This document shows positions 15,130 to 48,130 of a DNA stretch of 64,000 nt, piece after piece. Position numbers and translations under genes: made by a program. Below the pieces are notes generated by a model. That model was not told the origin of the DNA, did not search any database, and was given only the letters and a program-made list of their open reading frames with translations. Numbering within the stretch: position 1 is the first letter of the stretch; every line of letters starts with the position of its first letter. The stretch is from NCBI RefSeq assembly GCF_019968905.1, contig NZ_CP079946.1:5601356-5665355 (forward strand), read 5' to 3'. Source of the stretch: Corallococcus sp. EGB (GTDB taxonomy: Bacteria > Myxococcota > Myxococcia > Myxococcales > Myxococcaceae).

Positions 15130-15224
15130 GCTGGAGGACTCCTCGGGTGCGGGACGGGAACCACGGCCGGATGCGGGGCGCACGGTAGCCTCCACCCGTC
15201 CCCGCGCAAAGCGTCCCGTCCCGC

Positions 15225-15701
15225 TCACCCGCCCGCAGGGCGGCGGGGCAGCACCAGCTTCGCGACGAGCACCTGCACCACCTCCCCCTTCTGGTTGCGC
15301 GTCTCGCTGCGCACGGTGGCGATGCCCCGGTCCGGCCGCGTGCGCGAGGGGGTGACCTCCAACACCTCGCTCTCCACATGGAGGACGTCCCCCGGGCGCG
15401 TGGGCCGGGGCCAGCGGATGTCTCCGCCCGCGCCCACGATGCCGCCCTTGAAGGGCAGTCCGCTCTGGACGTTGAGCTTCATGGTGAGGGCCGCCGTGTG
15501 CCAGCCGCTCGCCGCCAGGCCCTCGAACAGCGTGTCCTTCGCCGTGGCGTCGTCCAGGTGGAAGCCCTGCGGGTCGAACTCCCGCGCGAAGGCGATGATC
15601 TGCGCCGCGTCCAGCGTGTGCGTGCCGCTGATGAACTTCTGCCCCACCGACAGGTCGTCCAGGAAAAGCTCCCGGCGCCTACCCTCTTCCGTCGAAGCCA
15701 T
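15225..15701 (-). CDS. MaoC-like (R)-specific enoyl-CoA hydratase / hot-dog dehydratase
   Basis: Internal start MASTEEGRRRELFLDDLSVGQKF...; hot-dog fold signature; 158 aa. Confidence 0.7.
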   Translation of the reverse strand: MASTEEGRRRELFLDDLSVGQKFISGTHTLDAAQIIAFAREFDPQGFHLDDATAKDTLFEGLAASGWHTAALTMKLNVQSGLPFKGGIVGAGGDIRWPRPTRPGDVLHVESEVLEVTPSRTRPDRGIATVRSETRNQKGEVVQVLVAKLVLPRRPAGG

Positions 15702-29599: not shown

Positions 29600-30484
29600 T
29601 CAGGCGGCCAGCTTCTCTCCGCCGCCGTCCACGGGCCCACCGGAGAGCGCGGCGACCTCGTGCTCGCTCAGCACGAGCTTCTCCTCGGAACCGCGCCAGA
29701 CGAACGGGATGCCGGGCTGCCGGTAGAGGTTCGCGGGGATGTCGCGCGCGAGCTGCGCGTGCAGCTCCGGCAGCTTGGACCAGTGCAGCCCGTGCCGCGT
29801 GTGATGCGCGGTGTGGTAGCCCAGGTTGCCCGTCATCAGGTTGTAGCCCTTGTGGAGGATGTTGTACGAGGCCTCCGAGTGGTTGGCCGTCTCCAGGCCC
29901 ACGTGGTGGAAGTACGTCGCCCAGGTCGTCACGTAGAGCGACGCCATCATGGGCAGGAGGAACACGAACAGCGCGTTGTAGGGGTTCACCCAGAACAGGC
30001 CCGCCAGCAGCACCAGCTGGAGCGCGGCCATCCCCACGAACGTGCGCAGCGCCTTGGGGTGGTGCTTCCTCCCCACCTGGAACGCGCGCGGATACGCCGT
30101 CAGCGCCGTGCCCAGCGAGTACTCCACCTCCCCCATCGTCGAGCCGTCATCCCGCTTCCAGCGCGACTCGTCCTGCGTCTGGTCCAGGTAGTTCTTGTGG
30201 TGGCCCAGCACGTGGTGGAGGAACCACGCCTGCGACGTCACGCCCGTCTGGAAACCGAAGACGATCTCCAACAGGCGGTTGGGCAGCGTGTGCTTGAAGA
30301 AGGACAGGTGCTGGTGGTGGTGGTTCCACGAGCAGATCCATCCCTTGGGGATGATGCCCAGCCCGAACCACAGCACCGGCACCCACCAGCTCCGGGCCAT
30401 GAGGAACACCGTCACATCGAGCGCGAACACGCCAAGGAACATCAGGACCGGGATGCGATCTTCAGGGTGCCGGAACAGGGTCAT
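29600..30484 (-). CDS. membrane fatty-acid desaturase/hydroxylase family protein
   Basis: His boxes NHHHQH, HHVLGHH and HTAHHTRH; 4 TM helices; start MTLFRHPEDRIPVLMF within ORF 29600..30592. Confidence 0.7.
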   Translation of the reverse strand: MTLFRHPEDRIPVLMFLGVFALDVTVFLMARSWWVPVLWFGLGIIPKGWICSWNHHHQHLSFFKHTLPNRLLEIVFGFQTGVTSQAWFLHHVLGHHKNYLDQTQDESRWKRDDGSTMGEVEYSLGTALTAYPRAFQVGRKHHPKALRTFVGMAALQLVLLAGLFWVNPYNALFVFLLPMMASLYVTTWATYFHHVGLETANHSEASYNILHKGYNLMTGNLGYHTAHHTRHGLHWSKLPELHAQLARDIPANLYRQPGIPFVWRGSEEKLVLSEHEVAALSGGPVDGGGEKLAA

Positions 30485-30705
30485 GCGCCTTCCGAGACAA
30501 GGGGAGCCAGGGCCAAAATGCCGCTTTTCCAACTGTAGGCCGCCTCCCCCCACCCCGAACAGCCCGCCCTCGCCCGCCTGCACGTTCCACACTGGCGGTA
30601 AACAACGTAGTCACGTTGAACTTGTATTTCCACAATTCCAAGAATGCCAGTCCTGCATTGTGATAAACGCCGACCCAGCCCTTTTGGACCCACCTGGAGG
30701 CAGCG

Positions 30706-35259: not shown

Positions 35260-36675
35260 ATGCGCATCGCCATCATCGCCACGTACACCCATCCGACCCG
35301 CCTGCGGATCAAGGAACCCTCCATCATGCAGTCCTCCGTGCCGGAGCTCATCGCGGGCCTGTGTCCGGAGCACGCGGAGGTGGAGATCTTCAACGAGAAG
35401 GAGGCGGACCTCCCGCTGGACCGGCACTGGGACCTGGTCTTCTTCTCGTACCTGCACTCGTATTACGAGCACACCAAGGTGCTCTCCACCCTCTTCCGTC
35501 AGCGCGGCATGACGACGGTGGCGGGCGGCCGGCACGCGAGCCACTTCCCCGATGACGCGGCGAAGTACTTCGACGCGGTCATCACCGGGGAGCCGGAGTC
35601 CAACGTGCCCGCGCTCATCGCGGACTTCGAGAAGGGGGAGCTCAAGCCCCGCTACAGCCTTCCCTCGCAGGGCGCCGCGGCCATCAAGCCGTACCGCTAC
35701 GAGCTCATCGACTTCACGCACAACAAGGTGCGCCTGCCGGGCATCGAGGCGTCGCGCGGCTGCCCCTTCACGTGCAACTTCTGCGTGCTCACCGGCCACG
35801 AGCGCTACCGCTTCCGGCCCATCCCGGAGGTCATCGATGAAATCCAGACGCGCATGCGCTGGAACCCGAACTTCCTGGGGCTGATGGGAGACGCGTTCGT
35901 CTTCCTGGACAACAACCTGGGCGGTTCTCCCAAGTACCTGCGCGCGCTGTGCGAAGCGTTGATCCCCCTGAAGAAGACCTGGGGCTGCGCCCTCACCTTC
36001 AACGTGCTGAAGGACGAGTCGCTGGTGAAGCTGATGGCGAAGGCGGGCTGCCGCTACGTCTACACCGGCCTGGAGTCGCTCAACCCGGACTCGCTCAAGG
36101 CGATGAACAAGGGGCAGAACAAGCTGTCGGAGGTGGACGCCGTCATCCGCCGCGTCTTCTCCGCCGGCATCCTCCTGTCCTTCGGGCTCATCGTCGGCTC
36201 GGACGGCGACACCAACGAATACCTGCACCGGCTGCCGGACTACCTGGCGGACCTGAAGTACTTCTCCGTCACGTTCCTGGGCATCGTGTGCCCCTACCCG
36301 GAGACGCCCTTCTTCCGCGAGCTGAAGGCGGAGGACCGGCTGCTGCCCGGCACCACCAGCCGCGACTACGACGGCTACACGCTGTGCCACCGGCCCAAGA
36401 ACCTGCACGCATCCGAGGTGGTGGAGCACTTCCAGCGGCTGTGCCGCACGCTGGGGAGCCTGCCCAACATCGCCCGGCACTACGCGTCCAAGCTGATGAT
36501 GAGCGACCTGCCCCGCTACAAGACGACCATCCTCTTCTCCGGGCCCGAAATCGTCAGCATCCGCAACCCGGTGAAGAACCCGGCGCGCCGCTACATCGCC
36601 GGGTTGGATGCCCTTGAAGCCTGGGACGCGGAGCGGATGCCCGCGCTGGGGCTCACGCCGCAGGTCCTGACCTGA
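35260..36675 (+). CDS. B12-binding domain radical SAM protein (class B)
   Basis: N-terminal Rossmann-like B12-binding domain, then SRGCPFTCNFC (CxxxCxxC) radical SAM cluster motif; 471 aa; 3' end overlaps the convergent desaturase by 23 bp. Confidence 0.8.
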   Translation: MRIAIIATYTHPTRLRIKEPSIMQSSVPELIAGLCPEHAEVEIFNEKEADLPLDRHWDLVFFSYLHSYYEHTKVLSTLFRQRGMTTVAGGRHASHFPDDAAKYFDAVITGEPESNVPALIADFEKGELKPRYSLPSQGAAAIKPYRYELIDFTHNKVRLPGIEASRGCPFTCNFCVLTGHERYRFRPIPEVIDEIQTRMRWNPNFLGLMGDAFVFLDNNLGGSPKYLRALCEALIPLKKTWGCALTFNVLKDESLVKLMAKAGCRYVYTGLESLNPDSLKAMNKGQNKLSEVDAVIRRVFSAGILLSFGLIVGSDGDTNEYLHRLPDYLADLKYFSVTFLGIVCPYPETPFFRELKAEDRLLPGTTSRDYDGYTLCHRPKNLHASEVVEHFQRLCRTLGSLPNIARHYASKLMMSDLPRYKTTILFSGPEIVSIRNPVKNPARRYIAGLDALEAWDAERMPALGLTPQVLT

Positions 36676-37483
36676 GCCGGGATGGCAGGCGCACGTCCCA
36701 CGCCAGCCCCAGGACCTGGAGCGCGCGGATGAAGAGCCAGCCCGGGTCCCACTGCCACCACACCCACCCGTGCCGCGCGGACGCGGGGAAGGCGTGGTGG
36801 TTGTTGTGCCAGCCCTCGCCCAATGCGAGCACGCTCACCCACCACACGTTGCGGCTGTGGTCGCGCGTGTCGTGGGCGCGCTGACCGAACGCCGCGTGGC
36901 ACACGGAGTTCACCGCGTAGGTGCTCTGCATCCAGCACACCACCGGGAGGAAGAAGTACGCGGGCACCGCGCGCCAGCCGAACGTCAGCCCCACGAAGAG
37001 CACCGCCAGCACCTGCGGCGCGATGCGGTAGCGCAGGAGCCAGTGGTAGTAGCGATCATGGGCCATGTCGCGGCACCAGGTGCGCCAGCCGTCCTCCTCC
37101 GTGGAGGCCTCGTTGAGGATCCACCCCATGTGCGCGTACCAGAAGCCGTGCACCGGCGAGTGCACGTCCCCTTCCGCGTCCGCATTCGCGTGGTGCAGCC
37201 GGTGGTTGGCGGCCCACAGCAGCGGGCTGCCCTGGGCGGTGAGCATGGCCACCGTGACCAGCGCGTACTCCACCCAGCGGGGGCACGCGAAGGCGCGGTG
37301 GCACAGCAGCCGGTGCAGCCCCACCGTCGTGCCCAGGCCAATGGACACGTACACGGCCAGCGCCACCGGCAGCGCGTACGGCGGCCAGGGCAGGAAGAAC
37401 GCGAGCGCGGCCAGCCCGTGGACCACGACCATGTAACCGACGATGACGGGACTGAGCTGGAAGCGGAGCGGCGCGGTGTTCAT
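36653..37483 (-). CDS. acyl-CoA/acyl-lipid delta-9-type desaturase (stearoyl-CoA desaturase family)
   Basis: His boxes HRLLCH, HRLHH and HNNHH with 4 TM helices; start MNTAPLRF within ORF 36653..37543. Confidence 0.8.
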   Translation of the reverse strand: MNTAPLRFQLSPVIVGYMVVVHGLAALAFFLPWPPYALPVALAVYVSIGLGTTVGLHRLLCHRAFACPRWVEYALVTVAMLTAQGSPLLWAANHRLHHANADAEGDVHSPVHGFWYAHMGWILNEASTEEDGWRTWCRDMAHDRYYHWLLRYRIAPQVLAVLFVGLTFGWRAVPAYFFLPVVCWMQSTYAVNSVCHAAFGQRAHDTRDHSRNVWWVSVLALGEGWHNNHHAFPASARHGWVWWQWDPGWLFIRALQVLGLAWDVRLPSRLRSGPAA

Positions 37484-37567
37484 GTGCTCGATGCTGCGTC
37501 GAGGATGAGGCCCGCAGTCTAGGGGGCCCGCCTGACGGGACAAGGAATGCGCCCGGCGCGCCCCGCG

Positions 37568-40500
37568 TCACATCACGCGCGCGTCACGGGCCGGGGGCGG
37601 CGCGAACGCCGGGCTGGGTGGGGCCCGCAGGGTGGACTCGAAGCGGTCCATGCGCCGCAGCTCCGCGCGGGCCTCCACCTCCGTGAAGATGGCGCGCGCA
37701 CGGGCGAGGAAGGCCTCGCGCCGGTGCGGCAGGGCCACCGCCGCGTCGAAGTAGGCCACGCCCGTCTCCCAGCGGTTGGGGCTCCTCTCCAGGACGGCGA
37801 TGGCCTCCAGGAACACCGGCTCCGCGGCCTTCGGCCCCTTGCGCAGCGCCAGCGAGCGCGCCGTCACGCGCAGCGCCGGGCCCTTCAGGTACGGGTAGAG
37901 CCGGGCGATGAGGCGCGCCTTGATGCAGGACAGCCGGACGATCCTCGACAGCTTCCTGCGCGGCACCACCGTGGCGCCCTCCTCCAGCGCGAAGAGGGCC
38001 GCCTCCGCCGCGTCCACCAGCCCCACCTGGAGGAAGGGCACCATCACCTGGTAGCTCCAGATGCTCTTGAAGCAGCGCACCGCGACGAGCGCCGCCTCCT
38101 CCACCTGGTGCTCGCGCACCGTGACGTTGGCCAGGTGGTTGAGGCTGGCGCACTGGTTGGCCAGGTCCGCCACCTCCACGCTGATGCGCAGGCCCTGCTC
38201 CAGCTCCGCGCACAGTTCGCCCACGTCCCCTTCGCCCAGCAGGTAGCGGCACATGGGCGCCCACGAGTGCGCCCAGCCCTGGTGCATCAGCGCGTTGAGC
38301 TCCTCGCCAATGGCGCCCATCTGCTCGTAGAGCGCGACGGCGGCGCGGAAGCGCGAGTGGAGGAACTCGCCCGTGGCCTGCATCATCAGGGACGTCTGGC
38401 GCTCCCAGCGCTCGCCCACCTGGCGCAGCGTGGAGACGGCCTCCTCCTGGAACTCCCGCGCGCGCTGCAGCTCGTTGGCGAAGAAGGCCTGGATGCCCAG
38501 GCGGCTGAGCGCGAGCCCCTCCGCCACCGGGTCCTTGGAGCGCCGCGCGTACTCCAGCGCCTTCTCACAGTGGTAGCGCGCGCGCTTGAGCAGGCCCGCG
38601 CCGAACAGCAGCGTGCCGTAGTAGCCGCGCGCCAGGCTGATGGCGTAGTCGTTGCGCGAGCGCTCCGCCATGTTGGTGGACACCAGCGTCGCCCAGGTGA
38701 GCTTGGTGATGTCCGCGAAGTAGTAGATGCGGATGAGCGAGTTGAGCGTGGACAGCTGCTGCAGGTAGTTGCCCAGCCGCGCCGCCGGCAGCGGCCGCAG
38801 GATGAACGGCAGCAGCGACGCGAGCCCCCGCAGCAGCAGGTTCGCCAGCGTGCGCAGCCCCAGCGCGGGCAGGCTCCCCGGAAGGCTGCGCCCCCGCAGC
38901 ACCAGCGACTTCTCCAGGTGCTGCGTGGCGAGCGCGGACTCGCCCTTCTCCTGGTGCGCGCGGCCCAGCCCCAGGTGCAGCTCCGCCTGGCGCTGGACCT
39001 CCTCCTCGTCCACCAGGCACTGCTCGAACATCAGGATGGCGTTGGCGTAGTGGCCCGCCTGCAGCAGCGTCTCCGCCAGCTCCTGCATCACCCGGCGCGT
39101 CTGCAGCAGCGTCACCTCCGGGTCCACCGGGACGACGGTGCCCAGGAGCTCCAGGCCGCGGTTGTAGTGGTAGAGCGCGTCATCGTTCGCGTACTGCGCC
39201 CGCGCGCTGCGGGCCGCCATCAGCGTGTACTCCAGGCCCTTGTCCTCCACGTTGCCCGCGAGGAAGTGGAACGCGAGCAGCCCCGCGGAGCCCGCGAGGT
39301 TGTCGCTGGCGCGGACCTCCAGGTAGCGCGCGAGCCGGCGGTGCAGGTCCTCGCGCGCCGACACCAGCAGCGTGTTGTAGGCCACGTCGCGGATGACGAT
39401 GTGCTTGAAGAGGCAGGTGTACGGCTCCTCCGTCTCCAGGAGGATGAGGCCCAGGCGCTGGAGCGTGTCCATGGCCTCGCGCAGGACGCGGTGGCCCAGG
39501 GTGGGCACCAGCGCCGCCACGCCATCCAGCGTGAAGATGCGCCCGATGACGGACGCCACCTTCACCACCAGCTTCTCCGTCTCGCTGAGCAGGTCGATGC
39601 GCGACAGCACCACGTCCTGGATGGAGTCCGGGAGGAGGAGGTCCTGCAGGCCCCGCTTCAGCTCCATCCGCGAGGCGCCGGGCTCCACCGGCCCCAGGTA
39701 GCCCTGCTCCGCCAGCCCCTCCACGATGGATTCGATGAAGAACGGGTTGCCCTGCACCTTCGCGAGCAGCCGGTCCTCCAGCGCCACGTCCGGCGGCGAC
39801 AGGCGCAGGTGCACGCGCAAGAGCGCCCGCGTGTCCGCGTCGTCCAGGCTCACCAGGTCCACCGGACGGAACTCCGGCAGCTCGCGCAGGCCCTTGAGCT
39901 GCTCTCCCGGGCGCATCGTCGCCAGCACCATGATGCGGTGCGAGCCCACGCGCCCCGCCACGTACTGCAGCAGGTCCAGGGAGATGTAGTCCGCCCAGTG
40001 CAGGTCCTCGAAGAAGAGCAGCACCGGCTGCGAGCGGCTGAGCTTCTCCAGCAGCTGGAAGACGATCTGGAACACCTTCTGCTGCCTGCGCCGCGCGTCC
40101 ATCCGCGCCGTGGTGGACGTCTCCTCCAGGGACATGCCGAGGATGCCCGCGACCACGGGGATCCACTCCGGCCCCACGTCCTCCAGCCCGTCCAGCCCCT
40201 GGCGCAGGCGCGTCAGCTGCGCCTCGGTGTCATCCGAGTCGAGCAGCCCGAACGCCTGGAGGAGCACCTCCTTCCAGGGGAAGAACGGGGTGAAGGCCTC
40301 GTAGGAGTAGCAGACGCCGTACAGCGCCCGCGCGCCGCCCTCCTCCGCGTCCTCCAGCACGCGCGCGCCCAGGCGCGACTTGCCGATGCCCGCCTCTCCG
40401 GACACCATGCACACGCGGCCCTGGCCCGCGAAGGCCGCGTCGAGCGACTCGCGCAGCATGTCGAGCTCGCGGCCACGGCCGATGATGTCACCCCGGCCCT

Positions 40501-41860
40501 TGATGAAGAGGCTGCGGCGCGTCTCGCCCGAGAGCCGGTACACCGGCACCGAGCGCGAGACGCCCTTCAGCTTCGCGTCCTCCACGAACTCGGTGGCGAA
40601 GCCGCCCTGCTGTGATCTCGCCTGGGTGTGGGAGCACAGGTGCACGCCGCCCTGGCGTCCGCCGTGCGTCATCAGGCGCGCGGCGATGTTCACCACCTCG
40701 CCCAGCGCCGAGTACCCCTTGCGCGTGGGCGAGCCCATGTCCCCGCAGTAGGCGTGGCCGGTGGCGATGCCGATCTGCAGCTCATCCAGGAAGGGGAACT
40801 GCTCGCGGGCCTTGAGCAGCTTGCAGGCCAGCCGGCACGCCAGCACCTCCTTGTTCTGCTGGGCGGTGGGCGCGCCGAAGAGGACGTAGAGCACGTTGCC
40901 CTTGTCCGTGAAGTCCGTCATCAGCAGCACGCCGCCGTGGTGGGCGCTCTCGCGCTGGACGTATTCGTAATAGGCGTTGAGGTCGCGGGTGAAGGCGTCC
41001 GGATCCGCGTCCGCCCGCGCGTGCGTGAAGCGCACGAAGAAGCAGGTGACGTCGCGGAAGTCGCCCGCGAACTCCTGGTGCGCGGTGGTGATCTTCGTGA
41101 AGAGCACCGGGTGCAGGAGCAGCGCGCACCGGCCCACCAACTCCGCTCCGCCCGTGGGCGCGGGCAGCGGGCGCCTCACCGACTCCAGCCGCGCGTCCGC
41201 CGCCAGCCGGTGGTTGCCGCCCTCGCGGGGCTCGCCCCTGCGCACGGCCTCCGGCAGGGCCGCCCAGGCGCGGGGGCTCAGCACGACCTCCGACACGGCG
41301 GCCTGCTTCTCCGCGGCCACCGCCTGCGCCAGCGGCTCGCCCACGAGCGCCGGGTGCATCCACAGGCCGGTGGCGCCCATCACGATGCGCGTGGCCTCAC
41401 CGAACCCGATGCCGATGCGCGACGACACGCCGAAGCGCTGCCCCAACAGCTCCAGCCGGGCGAAGCGCGCGAGCCTGCGCTGCACGTGCAGCGCGCACAC
41501 CGCCGCGCGCTGCACCACGTCCGCGTCCGCCTCCTCGGGCTCGGCCTCGAAGCACGCGAGGATGGAGTCGCCGGCGAACTGGTAGATGTCCCCGCCGTGG
41601 TCTCGGACCACGTCGATCATCTCCGTGTAGTAGTTCGTCAGCAGGCGCTGGAGCGCGTCGATGCCGCGTGGCCCCGCGCCGCTCAGCCCCACCACGATGG
41701 GCGTGAAGCCCGCGATGTCCAGGAGCAGGATGGCGCCCCGCACGCCTTCGGTCCGAGGCAGCGCGTCCGCCTCGTGGCGCTGGAGCCGCGCGAGGATGGC
41801 CGCCGGCATGTAGGGCGCCAGCATCGCGACGGCGGGATCGATGGGCTGCGGGGAGGACAT
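37568..41860 (-). CDS. adenylate/guanylate cyclase domain protein with a central AAA/NB-ARC-like ATPase and C-terminal TPR array
   Basis: Two class-III cyclase-like domains (ILLLDIAGFT...; FFVRFTHARA...GDMGSPTR), Walker A GEAGIGKS, a long TPR/helical C-terminus; about 1430 aa. Confidence 0.8.
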   Translation of the reverse strand: MSSPQPIDPAVAMLAPYMPAAILARLQRHEADALPRTEGVRGAILLLDIAGFTPIVVGLSGAGPRGIDALQRLLTNYYTEMIDVVRDHGGDIYQFAGDSILACFEAEPEEADADVVQRAAVCALHVQRRLARFARLELLGQRFGVSSRIGIGFGEATRIVMGATGLWMHPALVGEPLAQAVAAEKQAAVSEVVLSPRAWAALPEAVRRGEPREGGNHRLAADARLESVRRPLPAPTGGAELVGRCALLLHPVLFTKITTAHQEFAGDFRDVTCFFVRFTHARADADPDAFTRDLNAYYEYVQRESAHHGGVLLMTDFTDKGNVLYVLFGAPTAQQNKEVLACRLACKLLKAREQFPFLDELQIGIATGHAYCGDMGSPTRKGYSALGEVVNIAARLMTHGGRQGGVHLCSHTQARSQQGGFATEFVEDAKLKGVSRSVPVYRLSGETRRSLFIKGRGDIIGRGRELDMLRESLDAAFAGQGRVCMVSGEAGIGKSRLGARVLEDAEEGGARALYGVCYSYEAFTPFFPWKEVLLQAFGLLDSDDTEAQLTRLRQGLDGLEDVGPEWIPVVAGILGMSLEETSTTARMDARRRQQKVFQIVFQLLEKLSRSQPVLLFFEDLHWADYISLDLLQYVAGRVGSHRIMVLATMRPGEQLKGLRELPEFRPVDLVSLDDADTRALLRVHLRLSPPDVALEDRLLAKVQGNPFFIESIVEGLAEQGYLGPVEPGASRMELKRGLQDLLLPDSIQDVVLSRIDLLSETEKLVVKVASVIGRIFTLDGVAALVPTLGHRVLREAMDTLQRLGLILLETEEPYTCLFKHIVIRDVAYNTLLVSAREDLHRRLARYLEVRASDNLAGSAGLLAFHFLAGNVEDKGLEYTLMAARSARAQYANDDALYHYNRGLELLGTVVPVDPEVTLLQTRRVMQELAETLLQAGHYANAILMFEQCLVDEEEVQRQAELHLGLGRAHQEKGESALATQHLEKSLVLRGRSLPGSLPALGLRTLANLLLRGLASLLPFILRPLPAARLGNYLQQLSTLNSLIRIYYFADITKLTWATLVSTNMAERSRNDYAISLARGYYGTLLFGAGLLKRARYHCEKALEYARRSKDPVAEGLALSRLGIQAFFANELQRAREFQEEAVSTLRQVGERWERQTSLMMQATGEFLHSRFRAAVALYEQMGAIGEELNALMHQGWAHSWAPMCRYLLGEGDVGELCAELEQGLRISVEVADLANQCASLNHLANVTVREHQVEEAALVAVRCFKSIWSYQVMVPFLQVGLVDAAEAALFALEEGATVVPRRKLSRIVRLSCIKARLIARLYPYLKGPALRVTARSLALRKGPKAAEPVFLEAIAVLERSPNRWETGVAYFDAAVALPHRREAFLARARAIFTEVEARAELRRMDRFESTLRAPPSPAFAPPPARDARVM

Positions 41861-41877
41861 CCTCGGGGGCTTTCCGC

Positions 41878-42279
41878 TCAGGCCAGGTTGGCGTAGCGCA
41901 GGTAGAGGGCGCCCAGGCACATGACGCCGTAGAGGGGGATCTCCGCCGTCTCCAGCCAGGGCTGCTGCTTCATCACCGCGCCCCAGATGTGCACCGCCGT
42001 CATGATGCCGCCAATGAGGCCGATGAGCTCGAAGATGACCAGGTGGCTCTTGGGGTCCGGGATGAACTGCACCACCGCGATGATGACGGACAGCGCCAGG
42101 CCGCCCAGGCAGCGCGCGAAGTAGACCGTCAGGTCATTGTTGCCCGTGGGCAGCTCCCACCCGAACCACCGCGCCCAGCGCAGCGGCATGAACATCAGCG
42201 GCAGCGCGTAGACGACCAGGAAGACCGAGGTGGAGACCGCGAGGAACCAGCTGGCCAGCGGATAGTCGGGGTTGATCAT
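41878..42279 (-). CDS. small membrane protein (about 133 aa, 4 TM)
   Basis: Sense-like C-terminal part of ORF 41878..42534 from MINPDYPLASWFLAVSTSVFLVVYALPLMF...; 17 bp upstream of the cyclase gene start. Confidence 0.45.
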   Translation of the reverse strand: MINPDYPLASWFLAVSTSVFLVVYALPLMFMPLRWARWFGWELPTGNNDLTVYFARCLGGLALSVIIAVVQFIPDPKSHLVIFELIGLIGGIMTAVHIWGAVMKQQPWLETAEIPLYGVMCLGALYLRYANLA

Positions 42280-42415
42280 GATGGCGGACGTGGCTGGGGC
42301 CGGGTGTGCTCCCCGCCGGGCGCGGCCCAACCCCACGCCGTCCATCCTAGAATCTTTTCCGACCCCGTGGGGTGCCTTCCCCCCTCCCCACCCGCGCCTC
42401 CAGCCCGCCCGCCGC

Positions 42416-42946
42416 CTAGCGCGTGGCGGCGAGGAGGAACTCGGCCACCCGCTCCAGGGAGGTGGTGCGCTCGGCCTCGGCCGGGAAGCGCCGGAACACC
42501 TCCGGTGGCCCGTGCAGGATGAGCGGCTTGCCATAGCGCAGCGCCAGGACGGCCTCCGCGACGGTGCCGGCCCCTCCGGGCAGCGCCACCAGCGCGTGCG
42601 GCGTCAGCACGTTGATGTGGTTGCGGCTCATGGGGTCCGTGCCCTGCTCCCCGCTGAGCGGCAGGTGCGTGTAGATGGGGATCTCGATGTCCGTGTTCGG
42701 GTAGCCGGGCCGGGGCTGGTAGCGGCCGTCCGCCCCCACGGTGCCGGGGATGATGCCGATGGCCGCCCCCCGCCGTCCCTCCACCTGCACGAAGGCCCCC
42801 GCCGCGGCGCTCATGACGCCGCCGCCCGCGCCGGTGAGCAGGTCGAAGCCGGCCTCGGCGATCCACCGCGCCAGGGGAACGACCCACTCCTCGTGTGTCG
42901 CCCTGCCGGAGCCGAACACTCCGATGATGCGGCGGTGTCTGCGCAT
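42416..42946 (-). CDS. LOG/TIGR00725 family Rossmann-fold protein (lysine-decarboxylase-like)
   Basis: GVFGSGR...GGGVM...PGGAGT motifs typical of TIGR00725/LOG proteins; 176 aa. Confidence 0.65.
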   Translation of the reverse strand: MRRHRRIIGVFGSGRATHEEWVVPLARWIAEAGFDLLTGAGGGVMSAAAGAFVQVEGRRGAAIGIIPGTVGADGRYQPRPGYPNTDIEIPIYTHLPLSGEQGTDPMSRNHINVLTPHALVALPGGAGTVAEAVLALRYGKPLILHGPPEVFRRFPAEAERTTSLERVAEFLLAATR

Positions 42947-43189
42947 GACTGCGTCCTCCACGAAAGACCGGAACTACGTGTGCCCCTGTTCCATGCGAAT
43001 GCCCGGCCAACGCGGCAAGGGATCACGAACCTCCGGGCGTCCCCGCTCCCGTCCACCCGTGGAAGGTGCGTGACGCGAGCGTCACCTGACCGTCGCTTCC
43101 CTCCGCCCGGGGCGCCAGACGCGGGCTGCACGACCCGTGATGTCGGACCCCTCCTCTACCTTCGGCACAACCAAGCGAGGAGGCCGCCC

Positions 43190-43414
43190 ATGTTGGACGC
43201 CTGTGGAGGTTGTGAGCGCCGTGGCACCGCCAGAGAGGTGTTCGACGGGGGCGAGCTGCGGGAGCTGCCGGACCCGCCCCCTCCCGAGCGCGACGCCCTG
43301 CCGGAGGACTTCGGGGGCCGCTGCTGCACGCATGCCCGCGCGGAGCCGTGCTCGTGCGCCTTCCACTGGGTCTGTGCCCGCCACGGCGACCTGCACGTCG
43401 GCACCCATGACTGA
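43190..43414 (+). CDS. small Cys-rich protein (74 aa), possible zinc-ribbon
   Basis: MLDACGGCERRG...GRCCTHARAEPCSCAFHWVCARHGD with 7 Cys; strong gaggagg SD 7 nt upstream. Confidence 0.4.
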   Translation: MLDACGGCERRGTAREVFDGGELRELPDPPPPERDALPEDFGGRCCTHARAEPCSCAFHWVCARHGDLHVGTHD

Positions 43415-43510
43415 AACGCGAGTGCGGCCGTTGACACATGGGCAGTCGGTCCACGACGTTTCCCACGACTCCGGGCACGGCTGCCCGCGAAGGAATCGGA
43501 GCACGACACC

Positions 43511-43903
43511 ATGGGGCTCGCCGAACGTCAGGAACTGGCCGCGTTCAAACAGGACACCCTCCCAGCGAAGCTGGCGGAGCTGAAGGAGGCCGCGCGCGGG
43601 GCGGACCTCCAGGTCACGCTCGACGAGGAGAGCTTCACCACGGTGGCCGCCATCCAATGGCTGTCCCATGGCATCTTCGACCGGCTCATCGACGACATGA
43701 GGCGCGTCTGCGGCGATGCCATTGGAAAGCAGGCCGTGCGGGAGGGGCTCCAGCGGGTCCACCTCGTTCACCAGGAGGCGCCGGGCTACACGCTGGAGCT
43801 GAAGGACGGCACCCTCACCGTCCGGGCGAAGCTGGACGGCTCCATTGGCGACGACCTGCCCGGCTACGGCACCTACAAGGACTTCTTGTACAAGAAGCTG
43901 TAG
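43511..43903 (+). CDS. hypothetical protein (130 aa)
   Basis: MGLAERQELAAFKQDTLPAKLAELKEAARG...; globular composition; SD ggag upstream. Confidence 0.45.
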   Translation: MGLAERQELAAFKQDTLPAKLAELKEAARGADLQVTLDEESFTTVAAIQWLSHGIFDRLIDDMRRVCGDAIGKQAVREGLQRVHLVHQEAPGYTLELKDGTLTVRAKLDGSIGDDLPGYGTYKDFLYKKL

Positions 43904-43974
43904 GCCGCATGCCTTCCGGGCAGGAGAGCCGCCCTGTCCCAGGGCGGCTCCCAACCCGTGTCATTCCGTCCGGC

Positions 43975-46900
43975 TCAGGGCACGTCCAGCGCGACGCCCT
44001 GGCCGGGCACGGCCATCACCCAGCGGACGACGTCCGGCTTGCCGCCGCAGGTGACGCGCACCTCGAACTCGCGCCCCGCGGGCATCTGGCTGGACAGCGG
44101 CGTCTGGCCCTCCAGCACCTGCGAGCCCAGTGACACGCGGCACCCCTGGGCGCCGGTGACGCTGAGCGTGCCCCGGGCATCCGCCTGGGGCGCGGCGTCC
44201 GCGAGCGTGCGCAGGTCGATGTGCTCTGACTTGGGCACCTTGCCGAAGCGGTGCAGCTTGCCGTCCACCGCGGTGGAGACGAGCCAGCCCGAGGGGTCCT
44301 CCGGCAGACCGGAGTTCGGATCCAGCAGGACGCCGGACAGGTAGACGCGCTCGCCCTCCTGGGCGTTGCGCACCTCCACACCGCCCTTGGGCAGGAGGAA
44401 CACCAGCGCGAGCCCCGCGAGCACCAGGCCCACACCGCCCACGATGAGCCCCTTGCGCTGACCGGGCGTGAGCCCCTTCCCGCCCGCCGTGGCGGCGGGG
44501 GCCTGGGCCGTGGACGCCACCGCGTGGACGGGGGCCGGCGGCGCGGCCACGGGCGCCACCGGAGGGCGCACGGGCGTCGCGATGGGGGTCACCGGCGGGA
44601 GCGGCGGAGCGGCCACGGGCTGCGGCGGAGCGGCCCCCGGCGGAGGATAGGCCGCGTGGGTGCCCGTCGGCGGCGGCGAAGGGGTCCCCGGCTGAGGCGC
44701 GGGAGGCGCCGCGTATTGCGCGTGGGTGCCGCCAGGCTGCACGGACATGGCCGCGGGGGGCGGCGGCGGAGGGGCCGAGGTCAGGGGCGCGACGGAGGGC
44801 ACCGACACCGACGGACGCTGCGGCGGAGGCCCCACGCGCGTGGGCACGTTGGCGGAGGCGGCCGGCCGCACGGCGGTGGGCGGCGGCAGCGACGACCCGG
44901 GCGCGGGCGCGGCCGGGCGCGAGGGACGCTGCGCGGGCGCGGCCACGGGCGGCGCGGCCGGGGGACGCGTGGGGTCGGCGACGGAGACGACCTCCGTGCC
45001 ACGGTCGGCGGGCTCCGGCGGAGCGGCCACCGGGGGCGGCTCCATCCGGGGCATGCTGCCGGAACCGCCACGCGCGGGCGGCCGGGACAGGTCCGACGGG
45101 GCCCGCATGTCGCTGCCCGAGCCCGAGCCCGTCCCCAGGTTGCGCGAGTGCGAGCCCGTCCCCGGCATCAGCGCACGGGGGTTGGAGCCCGTCCCCGAGC
45201 CGGAGATGGACGACGGCGCGTACTCGGTGAGCCGGTCGCCCAGCGCCTCCTTGAAGAACTGCGCCACCGACGCGGGCGACGAGGACAGCCGGTGGTGCGC
45301 GATGACGGCTTCAATCTCCTCGCGCATCGCCGCGGCGGAGGGCGTGCGCCGCGCCGGGTCCTTCACCAGCGCGCGCAGGATGAGGTCCGACACGTCCTGC
45401 GGAATGTGGGGCCGCAGCTGCGAGGGCACCGGCGCGGGCTCGCGCACGATGGCCGCGAGCGTCGCCGCGTCGTGGTCCCGGCGGAAGGGCAGCTGGCCGG
45501 TGAGCAGCTCGAAGAGCACCACGCCCAGCGCGAACACGTCGTTGCGCCAGTCCAGCGGGCGGCCGCTGGCGGCCTCCGGGGAGAGGTACGAAATCTTTCC
45601 CTTGATGACGCCCGCCTGCGTGTGCTCCTCGCCCTGCACCTTGGCGATGCCGAAGTCCGACAGCTTGATGGCGCCGTCCAGCGACACCAGCACGTTGTGG
45701 GGACTGACGTCGCGGTGCACCACCGGGTGCGCCGTGCCGGACGGGTCCACGTAGCTGTGCGCGTAATGCAGGCCCGCGGCCACCTCCGCCACGATGCGCA
45801 GCGCGTGCTCCAGCGGCAGCGCCATGCCCTTGCGGCGCAGCTCCGTGATGAGGCGCTTGAGGTCCGGGCCGCGCACGTACTCCATCAGGATGTACGCCAC
45901 GCCGTCCGTCACGCCCACGTCGAAGGTCTGGACGACGTTGGGGTGCGTGAGGCGCGCGTTGGCGCGGGCCTCCGCGAAGAGCATGTCGACGAACTCAGGA
46001 TTCTCCGCGAACTGCGCGAGAATCTTCTTCATCACCACGAACTTCTCGAAGCCCTTCACGCCCTGCTGCTTGGCGAGGAAGACCTCCGCCATGCCGCCCT
46101 GCCCCAGCCGGCGGATGATCTGCAGCCGCGCGCCGCCGCTGTGCGTGTCCGTGGGCGACGTGCCCCGGGCGCCGGGGTCCTGGTTGGTGGAGCCGAAGAG
46201 GTACTGGCTGAGCGCGCGCTGCTCCAGCGCCTCGATGTCGTCCAGCGGCTTGTCGGTGAGGGGCGTGCGCGCGAGCAGCCCCTGGAACTGCGCGAGCGCC
46301 GGGGCCCGGGCGGTGCCGCCGCAGACGGGGCACACGCGCTCCATGGTGCCCTTGGCGCGAAGGACCTCCAGGTACTCGGAGGTCTGGATGCGCTGGTGGG
46401 TGACCTGGCCGCAGTTGCGGCAGTCGCACGGCAGCCACAGCGTGGCCAGCTTCGCCGGGAGCGCCTTGGTGGACTTCGCCAGGACGCTCAGGAGCGGCGG
46501 CGGCACGCGGCAGAGGACCACCTGGGCGCCCTGGGACGCGACCTCCAGCACCTGTTCGATGCGCGGCAGCGCCTCCGGCTCCACCACGCTCACGTGGCAG
46601 CAGTCGAAGGCGACGCGCCCCTCCAGGCCGGACGCCAGCCGGCGCACGTTGAGGTCGCCCTTGAGCGTGCTGGCCAGGGTGATGAAGGTGATGTCGTCCT
46701 GGATGATCTTCAGGTGCGACGCGAGCTCGGACGGCTCTGACGGGATGCCCGAGCGCAGGTAGCGCAGCACCGCCGGGTCCACCGCGGAGAACTGCTGGCG
46801 GCGCGCGAAGTCGAAGAACTCCGTGGGCTCGTCCGCGAACTCCAGCGGCTGGGCGCACACCGGGCACTGGTGCGGCGGGGCTCCGCCCTGCTCCAGCACC

Positions 46901-47283
46901 TTCGCCTCCTCCACCAGGCGCACCAGCCGCAGCCGGTCCTCCTTGCAGAAGCGGCACGTGTACGGCGCCAGCATGGAGAGCACGCGCGCGACGCCCGCGA
47001 AGCCCTCCACCATGTTGAGCTGATCCACCACCACCGGCGGCGCGTTGACGACGTACAGCCCCGACACGCCCTGCGGCGGGTGGCCGGCGAACTCGATCCA
47101 CCGGCGCACGCCGAAGGAGCTGATGCGCTCCACCAGGCCCAGGTCCACCACCACCAGGCCCTGGAGGCCCTTGGAGGTGGACGTGAGGGGGAAGGTTTCG
47201 TCGATCACCCCGGCCACGCGCACGTGGGTCAGACTGCCCACGCGCAGGGAGGTGATGCTGGCATTGGAAGTTTGGCTCTCCAC
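43975..47283 (-). CDS. Ser/Thr protein kinase fused to two N-terminal STAS (anti-sigma-antagonist-like) domains and zinc ribbons; Pro-rich linker, one TM helix, C-terminal extracytoplasmic domain
   Basis: STAS-like SLRVGSLTHVRVAGVIDETF and a second copy; CxxC pairs (CRFCKED...CPVCAQ; CDCRNCGQ...CPVCGG); kinase motifs GQGGMAEVFLAK, HRDVSPHNVLV, DFGIAK; about 230 aa Pro/Ala-rich region; TM LIVGGVGLVLAGLALVFLL. Start taken as GTG (VESQTSNASITSL) after gagggtagg; the ORF's ATG at 47364 is also possible. Confidence 0.75.
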   Translation of the reverse strand: MESQTSNASITSLRVGSLTHVRVAGVIDETFPLTSTSKGLQGLVVVDLGLVERISSFGVRRWIEFAGHPPQGVSGLYVVNAPPVVVDQLNMVEGFAGVARVLSMLAPYTCRFCKEDRLRLVRLVEEAKVLEQGGAPPHQCPVCAQPLEFADEPTEFFDFARRQQFSAVDPAVLRYLRSGIPSEPSELASHLKIIQDDITFITLASTLKGDLNVRRLASGLEGRVAFDCCHVSVVEPEALPRIEQVLEVASQGAQVVLCRVPPPLLSVLAKSTKALPAKLATLWLPCDCRNCGQVTHQRIQTSEYLEVLRAKGTMERVCPVCGGTARAPALAQFQGLLARTPLTDKPLDDIEALEQRALSQYLFGSTNQDPGARGTSPTDTHSGGARLQIIRRLGQGGMAEVFLAKQQGVKGFEKFVVMKKILAQFAENPEFVDMLFAEARANARLTHPNVVQTFDVGVTDGVAYILMEYVRGPDLKRLITELRRKGMALPLEHALRIVAEVAAGLHYAHSYVDPSGTAHPVVHRDVSPHNVLVSLDGAIKLSDFGIAKVQGEEHTQAGVIKGKISYLSPEAASGRPLDWRNDVFALGVVLFELLTGQLPFRRDHDAATLAAIVREPAPVPSQLRPHIPQDVSDLILRALVKDPARRTPSAAAMREEIEAVIAHHRLSSSPASVAQFFKEALGDRLTEYAPSSISGSGTGSNPRALMPGTGSHSRNLGTGSGSGSDMRAPSDLSRPPARGGSGSMPRMEPPPVAAPPEPADRGTEVVSVADPTRPPAAPPVAAPAQRPSRPAAPAPGSSLPPPTAVRPAASANVPTRVGPPPQRPSVSVPSVAPLTSAPPPPPPAAMSVQPGGTHAQYAAPPAPQPGTPSPPPTGTHAAYPPPGAAPPQPVAAPPLPPVTPIATPVRPPVAPVAAPPAPVHAVASTAQAPAATAGGKGLTPGQRKGLIVGGVGLVLAGLALVFLLPKGGVEVRNAQEGERVYLSGVLLDPNSGLPEDPSGWLVSTAVDGKLHRFGKVPKSEHIDLRTLADAAPQADARGTLSVTGAQGCRVSLGSQVLEGQTPLSSQMPAGREFEVRVTCGGKPDVVRWVMAVPGQGVALDVP

Positions 47284-47287
47284 CCGC

Positions 47288-48130
47288 CTACCCTCGTTCC
47301 AGACAGAACAGCAGCGACTTGGGCTGCGCGGCCCGGCGGCGCGCATCCCCCAGGTCCACCCCACAGGTGAACTGGGTCCGCTTCCCCGGGGTCACCCGCA
47401 CGGCGACCGCGTCGCTGTGCTCCAGGATGCGCCGCAGCCCCAGGCCCGCGCCACCCCCCGAGGCATCCACCTGCGCCTTCTCACCCCACGCCCTCACCAC
47501 CCGCACCAGCGGTGACACCGGCATGCGGCCGAAGCGATCCGTTGCCTCCAGCCACGCGCGGCCCTCCACCACCGCCCAGGACAAAAGGCAGCGGTCCTCC
47601 TCCTCCACCGCCTGCACCTGCCCCCGCCGGTGGGCGTACTTCGGCTCGCCGCTTCCGTCCACCGGAGCGTCGAGCAGGGCGTTCACGCCAATCTCATGGA
47701 CGACATCCGCCACCCGGCCGGCCGCGCCCTTGGAGCCGCCGGCCTGGAGGACGGCCTCCGCCACGCGCTCGCCCACGGCCGTCACCTCCGCCACGCTGCC
47801 CAGCCACGTGACGGACGTGGCGGCCTCCTGCGGAATCATGGGCTCGCCGCGCAAGAGCGCGCTCAAGAGGCGCGCCTCCCAGGCGGACGGCTGGCCCCCC
47901 TCGCGGGTGGCCAGGAGCAGCGCTGGGGGCCTGCGCTCCAGGAGCGCGGCGTGGGCGGGGGTGAACCGCCCGTCGAACAGCACCAGGTGCGGTGCCGCGT
48001 CGTCTCCCTTCCCCAACTGCAGGCCATCACGGGCCAGCACCCCGGAGGCCTTCTCCAGCGCCTCCGGCGTGAGCGTCGTGTCCGGCGTCAACTTCAGGGG
48101 AGCATCCTTCACGGCGGCAGCGGTTTCCAA
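47288..48130 (-). CDS. GHKL-type ATPase (RsbW/anti-sigma-kinase-like) with a degenerate receiver-like N-terminal domain
   Basis: C-terminal HEIGVNALLDA...DASGGGAGLGLRRIL (N-box, G2-box-like); ends 4 nt before the kinase gene start. Confidence 0.55.
   Translation of the reverse strand: METAAAVKDAPLKLTPDTTLTPEALEKASGVLARDGLQLGKGDDAAPHLVLFDGRFTPAHAALLERRPPALLLATREGGQPSAWEARLLSALLRGEPMIPQEAATSVTWLGSVAEVTAVGERVAEAVLQAGGSKGAAGRVADVVHEIGVNALLDAPVDGSGEPKYAHRRGQVQAVEEEDRCLLSWAVVEGRAWLEATDRFGRMPVSPLVRVVRAWGEKAQVDASGGGAGLGLRRILEHSDAVAVRVTPGKRTQFTCGVDLGDARRRAAQPKSLLFCLERG

Follow-up and report, generated by a model that had tools for sequence, protein, structure and literature searches.

Mammalian soluble adenylyl cyclase (sAC, ADCY10) carries two cyclase domains in one chain, which form a pseudo-heterodimer with a single active site. 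The human enzyme also has a P-loop at residues 516-523 and TPR-like motifs at residues 870-1098 (PMC3475452), and an autoinhibitory segment lowers the activity of the full-length form to about one tenth of that of the truncated catalytic form (PMC11006738). A haem-binding segment has been reported for sAC as well. In bacteria, Lehmann et al. (2013, PMC3789758) named an ortholog group comprising LA_4008 (LIC13201), MXAN_4545, COCOR_04748 and STAUR_4866, in which a tandem pair of class III cyclase domains is joined to an AAA ATPase and TPRs, and highlighted the orthologs in predatory Myxococcales. They found that L. interrogans supernatant raised cAMP in THP-1 cells, an effect abolished by anti-LA_4008 immunodepletion, and proposed a secreted toxin; the complementarity of the two cyclase domains, the relation to sAC and the bicarbonate site lay outside that paper's analysis.

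Other described systems share parts of this layout. Rv0386-type proteins combine an N-terminal class III cyclase effector with an AAA_16-type STAND NTPase and helical repeats, and Rv0386 itself has a single cyclase domain, is an obligate homodimer and ends in a LuxR-type HTH. PH0952, MalT, Apaf-1 and CED-4 each combine a NOD with a winged helix or arm and a sensor made of repeats, which in PH0952 and MalT are of the TPR or SUPR type; none of them has a cyclase effector. In STAND proteins, the effector is located N-terminal to the NTPase. Kobayashi, Buck and Levin are said to have described, in 2004, sAC-like cyclases of Chloroflexus aurantiacus that combine two cyclase domains with a long C-terminal extension resembling that of sAC. 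One Chloroflexus enzyme has been reported to be stimulated by bicarbonate (PMC11006738).

Gene layout and family assignment

The gene analysed here lies at 37568..41860 on the reverse strand of the window, by which we mean the whole 64,000-nucleotide stretch of Corallococcus sp. EGB DNA under study, and encodes a protein of 1430 residues (GC3 of 0.97). The long open reading frame spans 37568..41920 (-). Its ATG at 41860 fits the lengths of the orthologs (1413-1443 residues) and alignments that begin at residues 1-11; the alternative GTG start (1450 residues) was rejected because of a 43-nt overlap with the preceding gene and because the orthologs favour ATG. That preceding gene (41878..42279, -) encodes a 133-residue protein with four TM helices, called TM4 below, and its stop lies 17 nt from the cyclase ATG. 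Further upstream, a SLOG cluster 4 protein of 176 residues is encoded at 42416..42946 (-), with 136 nt between its stop and the TM4 ATG. The protein length and both spacings agree to the nucleotide with those in the preliminary description. Directly downstream of the cyclase gene is a fatty-acid desaturase gene (36653..37543, -; likely ATG at 37483; Pfam FA_desaturase, E 8e-17), and a B12-binding radical SAM protein of 471 residues (35260..36675, +; Pfam Radical_SAM) is encoded convergently with the cyclase. A search of 33 genes of the window for one encoding a cNMP-binding, CRP-like or phosphodiesterase protein found none. Rfam gave no match in 36000-44200 with E values of up to 0.1 allowed, and a consensus scan of 36400-44100 gave no sigma-70-type promoter and terminator-like matches only at background level.

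Both sequence comparison and structure prediction assign the large protein to the sAC-like enzymes, built on a STAND scaffold, and sAC is its best PDB match by sequence as well as by fold. It is 93% identical to a Corallococcus protein annotated as "AAA family ATPase". Full-length orthologs occur in Myxococcaceae and Leptospira, the myxobacterial ones at 58-93% identity and the Leptospira ones at 33% across 98% of the length; Chloroflexi homologs among the matches are 27-30% identical. The gene is thus the Corallococcus copy of a family whose architecture was already published in 2013. A literature search for MXAN_4544 to MXAN_4547 yielded only that study and an antiSMASH region boundary in PMC4902038. 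A match to the TOMM kinase/cyclase fusion family (TIGR03903) was rejected: its 213 bits fall well short of the 705.75 cut-off, the alignment is confined to the cyclase-NTPase part, and the protein has no kinase domain.

Tandem cyclase domains and the STAND-TPR region

The two cyclase domains occupy the N-terminal third of the chain. The second, C2 (about residues 262-446; 40523..41077, -), is recognized by Pfam as Guanylate_cyc (residues 270-441, E 3e-13), and residues 262-450 align with human ADCY10 C2 residues 283-467 (phmmer against the PDB, E 1e-11). The first, C1 (about residues 37-205; 41246..41752, -), goes undetected by Pfam, being too divergent for its model. We nevertheless regard C1 as a genuine cyclase domain on sequence and model evidence, because residues 14-201 align with ADCY10 C1 residues 16-196 (phmmer, E 1e-12), PADLOC PycC models match residues 44-203 (E 4.5e-12), and the AF2 model of residues 1-460 (pLDDT 92.8, pTM 0.91) contains two cyclase folds. 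Searched against the PDB with Foldseek, this model has as its top 24 matches the human sAC catalytic core, aligned at full length (E 2e-34, TM 0.83), and membrane AC9 C1-C2 ranks after sAC (TM 0.74). In sequence, the catalytic cores of sAC and the Corallococcus protein are only about 20% identical.

C1 carries the metal-binding aspartates D48 and D98 and has alanines (A178 and A182) at the Asn/Arg positions, while C2 carries K320, S384, N391 and R395 and has F274 and N322 at the metal-Asp positions. Each corresponds to a residue of sAC: D48 to D47, D98 to D99, K320 to K334, S384 to T405, N391 to N412 and R395 to R416. The preliminary description had named the catalytic residues as a point to check; each domain alone turns out to be half-deficient, and because the two halves are complementary they leave one competent site. 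The residue pattern therefore predicts exactly one catalytic site from C1 and C2, with a degenerate symmetry-related pocket. Since both domains are in the same chain, oligomerisation would not be needed to form the active site. Among 86 dual-domain homologs, with identity down to about 25%, D48, D98 and R395 are each present in all 86, N391 in 84 and K320 in 82; three Chloroflexi homologs in the alignment have Glu at the K320 position. Position 384 is more variable, being Ser here, Trp in 22 of the 86 homologs, and S, T, W or G across the family, which may mean that members of the clade handle substrate differently.

The pseudo-site differs from that of sAC. The human bicarbonate pair, Lys95 and Arg176, is replaced by Q94 and V181; every one of the 56 sequences in the Myxococcaceae/Leptospira clade has Gln94, and position 181 is always hydrophobic (Val or Ile), never Arg. 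Without this Lys/Arg pair, the protein is not expected to respond to bicarbonate as sAC does, in contrast to the Chloroflexus enzyme reported to be stimulated by it.

The C-terminal 970 residues are predicted, from sequence motifs and the structural model, to form an intact STAND NTPase with winged-helix and arm elements that lead into a long TPR-like solenoid. The nucleotide-binding domain spans residues 460-645 (39926..40483, -; Pfam AAA_16, E 1.2e-24), with a Walker A motif GEAGIGKS at 488-495 and a Walker B motif LLFFED at 614-619; a GxP motif, GNPFF, follows at 704-708. G491, G493, K494, E618, D619, N705 and P706 are invariant in the alignment. An all-helical TPR-like sensor array follows at about residues 856-1412 (37625..39295, -), identified by Pfam TPR matches at 925-1146 and by the AF2 model of residues 451-1430 (pLDDT 93.0), which shows about 28 consecutive helices. 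The features that define STAND proteins, namely Walker A, Walker B and GxP motifs in the NOD, then a winged helix or arm, and lastly a sensor of repeats, are thus all present, and the arrangement is colinear with sAC, in which the P-loop (516-523) and TPRs (870-1098) correspond to the Walker A motif and the TPRs at 925-1146.

Among PDB folds, residues 451-1430 best match that of the STAND-TPR protein PH0952 (6mfv, E 5e-14); Apaf-1, CED-4 and MalT come next. A different arrangement of the domains in the model keeps the overall TM scores against these STAND structures low (0.3-0.4), and a phmmer search of the C-terminal 980 residues against the PDB gave only generic TPR (LGN) matches. Unlike PH0952, MalT, Apaf-1 and CED-4, the Corallococcus protein has a cyclase as its effector. 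At the C-terminus, Pfam finds no HTH and the model stays an all-helical repeat to the end. Given the N-terminal position of STAND effectors, the cyclase pair is the output domain; the view that the protein has no output domain is mistaken, and nothing is missing at the C-terminus. The parse in the preliminary description, with its pair of class III cyclase domains, STAND ATPase and TPR array, is borne out by Pfam, phmmer and AF2, whereas its comparison with the Mycobacterium AC-ATPase-LuxR proteins is not. With two complementary cyclase domains and no HTH, the protein departs from Rv0386, and its closest analogue is instead ADCY10 together with bacterial relatives such as LA_4008.

Neighbouring genes and their conservation

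We compared the neighbourhood across close orthologs, defined as at least 55% identical and found in Myxococcaceae and Archangiaceae-like genomes, and 23 distant orthologs from Leptospira, other spirochaetes and other Myxococcota. Of 30 close orthologs, 27 keep the order SLOG-TM4-cyclase, followed by the convergent B12 radical-SAM gene; none of the 23 distant ones does. The three-gene arrangement for which a conservation check had been proposed therefore holds among close relatives and fails beyond them, so that, with the half-deficient cyclase domains, the refuting condition set in the preliminary description receives a mixed answer. Taken singly, SLOG is present in 29/30 close loci (0/23 distant), TM4 in 34/36, and the radical-SAM gene is present in 32/36, at 79-98% identity. 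The desaturase gene occurs in 14 of the 36 close loci and takes the cyclase-downstream position only in Corallococcus and Citreicoccus. Unlike the Corallococcus gene, the Leptospira genes lack SLOG, TM4 and radical-SAM neighbours and have a GMC oxidoreductase gene upstream. The radical-SAM protein belongs to no named family (its best NCBIfam match, rSAM_ladder_B12, scores 68 bits where the cut-off is 360). In two distant Myxococcota loci (L039 and L074), the cyclase lies near B12 radical-SAM or desaturase genes, which is suggestive; orthology of these radical-SAM proteins is unproven, as they are only 23-30% identical to the Myxococcaceae protein.

The TM4 family is small (43 clusters), with invariant residues that include W35, W41, R56, C57, H97, E110 and E113. 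TM4 has no soluble or nucleotide-binding domain, and searches of Pfam (up to E 10), NCBIfam and PADLOC gave nothing credible; a "DUF4345" UniRef label on one homolog was not reproduced. The 17-nt gap to the cyclase gene (relatives' median 21 nt, range 13-172 nt) makes co-transcription of the two plausible. Locus L027 retains TM4 though its SLOG and radical-SAM genes are gone. Conversely, two Myxococcus species and every one of the 23 distant orthologs lack TM4, which therefore is not an obligatory partner, and TM4 homologs at 37-46% identity occur in unrelated contexts with no adjoining cyclase. Within the SLOG-TM4 spacer, a -10-like hexamer, TAGGAT, lies in the motif TCTAGGATG at 42344..42349 (-), 64 nt upstream of the TM4 ATG. 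When the spacers of eight genera are aligned, C76, T77, A81, T82 and G83 are invariant and the rest is unalignable. This conserved motif suggests that TM4 and the cyclase have a candidate promoter of their own.

The 176-residue neighbour falls in PF18306, SLOG cluster 4 (score 86 bits, cut-off 26.3, E 2.5e-24), as do all SLOG homologs among the matches listed. It had initially been labelled a LOG/TIGR00725 protein, which is correct only in part. It has the LOG-like motifs TGAGGGVM and PGGAGTVAE, the latter at residues 123-131 and fitting PGGxGTxxE, but its scores are far below the cut-offs of TIGR00725 (40.9/106.9), TIGR00730 (25.6/96.35) and PF03641 (19.1/27). Its nearest solved relative is the Chlamydomonas molybdenum-cofactor carrier protein (MCP) 2iz5 (E 1e-8) rather than a LOG enzyme; these two proteins and the LOG phosphoribohydrolases share a Rossmann-like SLOG fold family. 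MCP has GMGPGT where the LOG motif reads PGGxGT, in contrast to the PGGAGTVAE of the Corallococcus protein.

Two readings give these neighbours a function. In one, the SLOG-TM4-cyclase-radical-SAM block would act as a module in which TM4 docks on the TPR solenoid and, as a membrane receptor, gates the STAND switch in a cyclase that is sAC-like but insensitive to bicarbonate. The invariant Cys57, His97, Glu110 and Glu113 of TM4 are invoked for it, and a lipid or other small compound that neighbours produce or sense might act as the signal; we regard this reading as unlikely. The radical-SAM, desaturase and SLOG genes are the neighbours named in it as signal makers or sensors.

The other, the idea of which goes back to the preliminary description, is a private circuit in which the cyclase would make a cyclic nucleotide, SLOG would sense or degrade it and TM4 would be the membrane effector, in the manner of Pycsar, CBASS or SLOG-conflict systems. 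The three genes are adjacent on the same strand, their block outlasts changes in the outer flanks (as between the Stigmatella locus L083 and Corallococcus), and the SLOG protein retains the LOG-type nucleotide-binding motifs PGGAGTVAE and GGGVM. Burroughs et al. are said to have proposed SLOG domains as nucleotide sensors in 2015, which would favour the same idea. Yet the Archangium SLOG ortholog (72% identical) adjoins P450 and protease genes with no cyclase nearby, SLOG homologs with 51-60% identity have other surroundings and no adjoining cyclase, and neither SLOG nor TM4 accompanies any of the 23 distant orthologs. Moreover, TM4 and SLOG can each be lost from close loci, the -10-like motif separates SLOG from TM4, and TM4 offers no domain to bind a nucleotide. 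PADLOC returned only the generic PycC similarity of C1, and nothing for TM4 or SLOG, which argues against Pycsar or CBASS membership. Finally, the convergent radical-SAM gene is as conserved as SLOG and TM4, so the pattern fits plain block synteny. SLOG is a conserved neighbour whose link to the cyclase has no support beyond local synteny, and we consider such a circuit improbable.

Predicted mode of action

The gene structure, residue pattern, predicted folds and synteny lead us to favour, as the likely reading, a sAC-like STAND enzyme that uses a composite C1-C2 site to convert ATP into cAMP, is gated by its STAND-TPR region and has TM4 as a partner. The enzyme would be cytosolic, with C1 and C2 packing head-to-tail as an intrachain pseudo-heterodimer, as in sAC and membrane adenylyl cyclases. 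C1 would provide the metal-binding D48 and D98, and C2 the adenine-selecting K320 and S384 and the transition-state residues N391 and R395; judged by these residues, the single site most likely turns ATP into cAMP. By analogy with PH0952, MalT and full-length sAC, the STAND-TPR part may keep the cyclase in a closed, ADP-bound state of low activity, and the shared STAND layout suggests autoinhibition that is relieved by an inducer. Binding of a ligand or partner to the TPR sensor would then lead to nucleotide exchange and oligomerisation and release the catalytic core. If the cyclase has a membrane anchor or partner, TM4, probably on the same mRNA, is the strongest candidate; this is the least certain step.

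A different role, a cAMP-raising toxin exported to act on prey or host cells, has been proposed for LA_4008. The immunodepletion result and the orthologs in predatory Myxococcales (PMC3789758) speak for it, although the Leptospira support is indirect, as recombinant LA_4008 was not assayed (PMC3789758), and myxobacterial prey are mostly bacteria. In the Corallococcus protein, the N-terminal helices belong to the sAC-like fold, aligning from sAC residue 16, and so are not a signal peptide. Secretion-system genes are absent beside the cyclase gene, and the size of the protein (157 kDa) and its intact STAND switch and sensor are those of an apparent intracellular regulator, which makes a toxin very unlikely here. 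Equally hard to credit is a catalytically silent pseudo-cyclase whose C1-C2 pair only binds ATP or a ligand as a scaffold or ATP sensor: inactive class III cyclase-like ATP-binding proteins do exist (6yii is among the fold matches), C1 is divergent and residue 384 varies, but all six catalytic residues are present, and retention of five of them in 95-100% of the 86 homologs is hard to explain without catalysis.

As the result of a genome scan, the finding is largely ordinary, since the family and architecture are published and the LOG-like link fails. Its interest, on the favoured reading of a STAND-gated sAC-like enzyme, lies in regulation. To our knowledge, the function of the C-terminal region of sAC, roughly 1100 residues, is still unclear, and we know of no input signal for any bacterial sAC-like STAND cyclase. 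With its conserved catalytic core, intact NTPase switch, pseudo-site free of the bicarbonate residues and candidate co-transcribed membrane partner, this clade could serve as a model for STAND-TPR control of a C1-C2 cyclase in tractable hosts such as M. xanthus (MXAN_4545). If TM4 did prove to be the receptor of such a module, it would provide the first defined input for a C-terminal region of the sAC type.

A class III cyclase pair resembling the soluble adenylyl cyclase core

The locus contains three genes on the minus strand: a SLOG cluster 4 gene (SLOG, 42416–42946, 176 aa), a gene for a protein with four transmembrane helices (TM4, 41878–42279, 133 aa), separated from it by a 136-nt spacer, and, after a further 17 nt, the gene of the large cyclase protein (37568–41860, 1430 aa). 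On re-examination, these genes and spacings matched those in the preliminary description exactly; its observation was confirmed as a whole, and its interpretation is supported in part. All three genes are judged to be coding from their GC3 of 0.90–0.97; the G+C content across the window is about 70%. A longer, GTG-initiated reading frame of 1450 aa for the cyclase was rejected, as it would overlap the TM4 gene and ortholog lengths of 1413–1443 aa speak against it. The closest protein match of the large protein, from an unclassified Corallococcus, is 93% identical, and loci in C. coralloides, C. exercitus and other genomes match it at 92–95%, which places the window in a Corallococcus-like myxobacterium.

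Pfam assigned a Guanylate_cyc domain (aa 270–441), AAA_16 (aa 460–645) and TPRs (aa 925–1146), with no match in the N-terminal 240 residues. Phmmer searches against the PDB revealed two class III cyclase domains, C1 and C2: aa 14–201 align to C1 of human soluble adenylyl cyclase (sAC, ADCY10; residues 16–196, E 1e-12), and aa 262–450 to its C2 (residues 283–467, E ~1e-11). An AlphaFold2 model of aa 1–460, built from 86 homologs (pLDDT 92.8, pTM 0.91), agrees with this assignment. Every one of its 24 top Foldseek matches in the PDB is the catalytic core of human sAC, in alignments that span the full length (E 2e-34, TM 0.83, ~20% identity). The next match is the C1–C2 unit of membrane AC9 (TM 0.74), and single-domain bacterial cyclases span just half of the model.

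The catalytic residues are divided between the two domains. C1 carries the metal-binding aspartates D48 and D98 (human D47 and D99), and its Asn and Arg positions are alanines (A178 and A182). C2 supplies K320, S384, N391 and R395 (human K334, T405, N412 and R416), and its metal-Asp positions are occupied by F274 and N322. Thus the refuting condition set in the preliminary description, that both domains lack catalytic residues, holds for half of the set in each, but the two halves sum to a complete site. Among 86 dual-domain homologs, some only ~25% identical, D48, D98 and R395 occur without exception, N391 in 84 and K320 in 82. From these residues, C1 and C2 are predicted to form a single, complete adenylyl cyclase site of the class IIIb type, and their pairing within a single chain would create one site converting ATP to cAMP.

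Some positions vary among the homologs. Position 384, which corresponds to sAC Thr405, is occupied by Trp in 22 of the 86, all from a group, Hyalangium and Stigmatella among them, that is 58–64% identical to the large protein; several distant homologs have Gly there. In three Chloroflexi homologs (P0084, P0092 and P0106), Glu replaces the adenine-selecting Lys at position 320, a hint of a different substrate.

The bicarbonate-binding pocket of sAC (Lys95 and Arg176) is not kept in the large protein. Position 94 is Gln, within the motif YQFAGDS, in 56/56 members of the Myxococcaceae/Leptospira clade, and Lys is retained there in some more distant homologs. The Arg176 equivalent is V181, seven residues past the invariant G174, and is Val or Ile throughout. 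Judging by these residues, bicarbonate activation of the sAC type is not expected. Positions 184–185 hold a near-invariant Glu-Lys pair (AEK) on the helix of C1 bordering the degenerate pseudo-site, adjoining the invariant Gln94; the pair could mark a regulatory pocket unlike the sAC bicarbonate site.

A STAND module with the cyclase pair as effector

The remainder of the protein has the features of a STAND NTPase followed by a TPR solenoid. The Walker A (GEAGIGKS, aa 488–495), Walker B (LLFFED, aa 614–619) and STAND GxP (GNPFF, aa 704–708) motifs are all invariant among orthologs. The AlphaFold2 model of aa 451–1430 (pLDDT 93.0, pTM 0.85) shows a P-loop domain with winged-helix and arm elements, then about 28 consecutive helices. 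Its top fold match in the PDB is the STAND-TPR protein PH0952 (6mfv, E 5e-14), followed by Apaf-1, CED-4, MalT and then numerous TPR proteins. The large protein is a STAND enzyme in which the N-terminal cyclase pair serves as effector; its description as having no output domain misread this architecture. The likeness once drawn to the Mycobacterium AC-ATPase-LuxR proteins (Rv0386 type) fails on two defining points, since they carry just one cyclase domain together with a LuxR HTH and the large protein differs in both. Human sAC has a P-loop at 516–523 and TPR-like motifs at 870–1098 (PMC3475452), colinear with those of the large protein.

We propose that the STAND NTPase and TPR solenoid would autoinhibit the cyclase until a ligand or partner binds, by analogy with PH0952 and MalT, which behave in this way, and with full-length sAC, whose activity is about ten-fold below that of truncated sAC (PMC11006738). 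Taken jointly, the identity of the large protein as an sAC-like STAND cyclase and its catalysis appear probable.

Conservation of the gene block and candidate partners

Window genes were placed by tblastn at 72 genomic loci encoding relatives and at further loci reached through homologs. Close orthologs (at least 55% identical) come from Corallococcus, Myxococcus, Pyxidicoccus, Citreicoccus, Hyalangium and related MAGs; distant ones (28–41% identical) come from Leptospira, other spirochaetes and other Myxococcota. The three-gene arrangement is conserved among close relatives, with SLOG and TM4 both present in the same order in 27/30 loci having enough upstream DNA, but not beyond them, as neither gene was found at any of 23 distant orthologs. 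The gene upstream of the Leptospira ortholog is a GMC oxidoreductase.

A fourth gene, encoding a B12-binding radical-SAM protein of no named family (35260–36675, plus strand), lies downstream and convergent with the cyclase; it is present in 32 of 36 close loci at 79–98% identity, a conservation exceeding that of the cyclase. Stigmatella hybrida, fetched separately, retains this four-gene block within wholly different outer flanks. Two Myxococcus species are missing both TM4 and the radical-SAM gene. In two distant Myxococcota loci, L039 (14307–15458) and L074 (13670–15076), a B12 radical-SAM gene lies just downstream of the cyclase ortholog on the same strand; at only 23–30% identity to that of the window, its orthology is unproven. 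L074 also has a fatty-acid desaturase upstream.

Two records carry unexpected copies. L014 (BNCN01000007.1), titled ‘Comamonas sp. KCTC 72670’, contains a Myxococcus-type SLOG-TM4-cyclase-radical-SAM locus with a 69% identical cyclase, and L033 (JBLZWL010000112.1, ‘Corallococcus terminator strain BB12-2’) has a Myxococcus-like copy at 69%, against 86% for the C. terminator type strain. Both are probably mislabelled or contaminated assemblies.

Three further window genes belong to the fatty-acid desaturase family (13978–15228, 29600–30592 and 36653–37543, all minus strand). The third follows the cyclase at a distance of 25–84 nt, with a 23-nt overlap onto the radical-SAM 3′ end; among close loci, a desaturase in this position occurs only in Corallococcus and Citreicoccus. 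Upstream of the block, a 1129-aa Ser/Thr kinase (43975–47364, minus strand), with Pkinase only at aa 415–680 and large unannotated flanks, is syntenic in Corallococcus (88–92% identity) and Hyalangium-type loci (66–69%) but not in Myxococcus or Stigmatella. A tandem pair of paralogous genes (4365–8158, plus strand; longest ORFs 744 and 554 aa) codes for DUF4140 + DUF4139 proteins; given the ~100-nt overlap of these ORFs, translation of the second probably begins farther downstream.

TM4 is a real gene of a small, unannotated family (43 clusters), with four TM helices predicted and strong conservation at W35, W41, Y53, R56, C57, H97, E110 and E113. Cys57, His97, Glu110 and Glu113 are invariant even in homologs from other phyla unlinked to cyclases, and may together bind a metal or cofactor. 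In the SLOG-TM4 spacer (42280–42415), the sole element alignable across eight genera is TCTAGGATG (with the hexamer TAGGAT at 42344–42349, minus strand; TATGAT in Hyalangium and Stigmatella), which resembles a −10 element and lies ~64 nt upstream of the TM4 ATG. Its conservation suggests that TM4 and the cyclase share a candidate promoter of their own, and the two likely form an operon. An Rfam scan of 36000–44200 gave no match. TM4 may act as a partner or anchor of the cyclase, and is the most plausible candidate because the gap between the genes is tight (13–172 nt, median 21) and because TM4 is retained in one MAG (L027) where an RsfS-like gene replaces SLOG. It is dispensable in some species.

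SLOG is a solid PF18306 member. The LOG/TIGR00725 label was borne out as to the LOG motif PGGxGTxxE (PGGAGTVAE, aa 123–131), but the protein falls under the TIGR00725, TIGR00730 and PF03641 cut-offs. Among solved structures, the Chlamydomonas molybdenum-cofactor carrier protein (2iz5, E 1e-8) is its closest relative and accounts for the NCBI name; that protein does not retain PGGxGTxxE. The private cyclase-LOG circuit suggested by the adjacency now looks unlikely: SLOG is absent beside the distant orthologs, and a 72% identical SLOG ortholog in Archangium violaceum (L082, 7435–9549) lies between a divergently oriented cytochrome P450 gene and a protease gene, and neither TM4 nor a cyclase is found close by. 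Since no Archangium locus emerged from the genome scan for the cyclase, that genus may lack it. More distant homologs of SLOG (51–60% identity) and TM4 (37–46%) occur in unrelated contexts. No cNMP-binding or phosphodiesterase genes were found among the window genes scanned, and PADLOC returned no more than a generic PycC resemblance of C1, with no match for TM4 or SLOG.

Relation to described cyclases

In 2004, Kobayashi et al. (cited in PMC11006738) reportedly described sAC-like cyclases of Chloroflexus that combine two catalytic domains with a C-terminus like that of sAC. The large protein belongs to a family of sAC-like STAND cyclases that has been described before. Leptospira interrogans LA_4008 has exactly its architecture: two class III cyclase homology domains in tandem, then an AAA ATPase, and TPRs at the C-terminus. 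MXAN_4545, COCOR_04748 and STAUR_4866 were named as orthologs (Lehmann et al. 2013, PMC3789758). LA_4008 was proposed to be a secreted factor raising host cAMP, on the basis of culture supernatant and immunodepletion rather than recombinant enzyme (PMC3789758). Our literature search found nothing further on the myxobacterial genes. What appears to be new is modest: the complementarity of C1 and C2 made explicit for this clade, a lineage-restricted four-gene block in which TM4 and the cyclase likely form an operon, and the bicarbonate residues lost across the whole clade.
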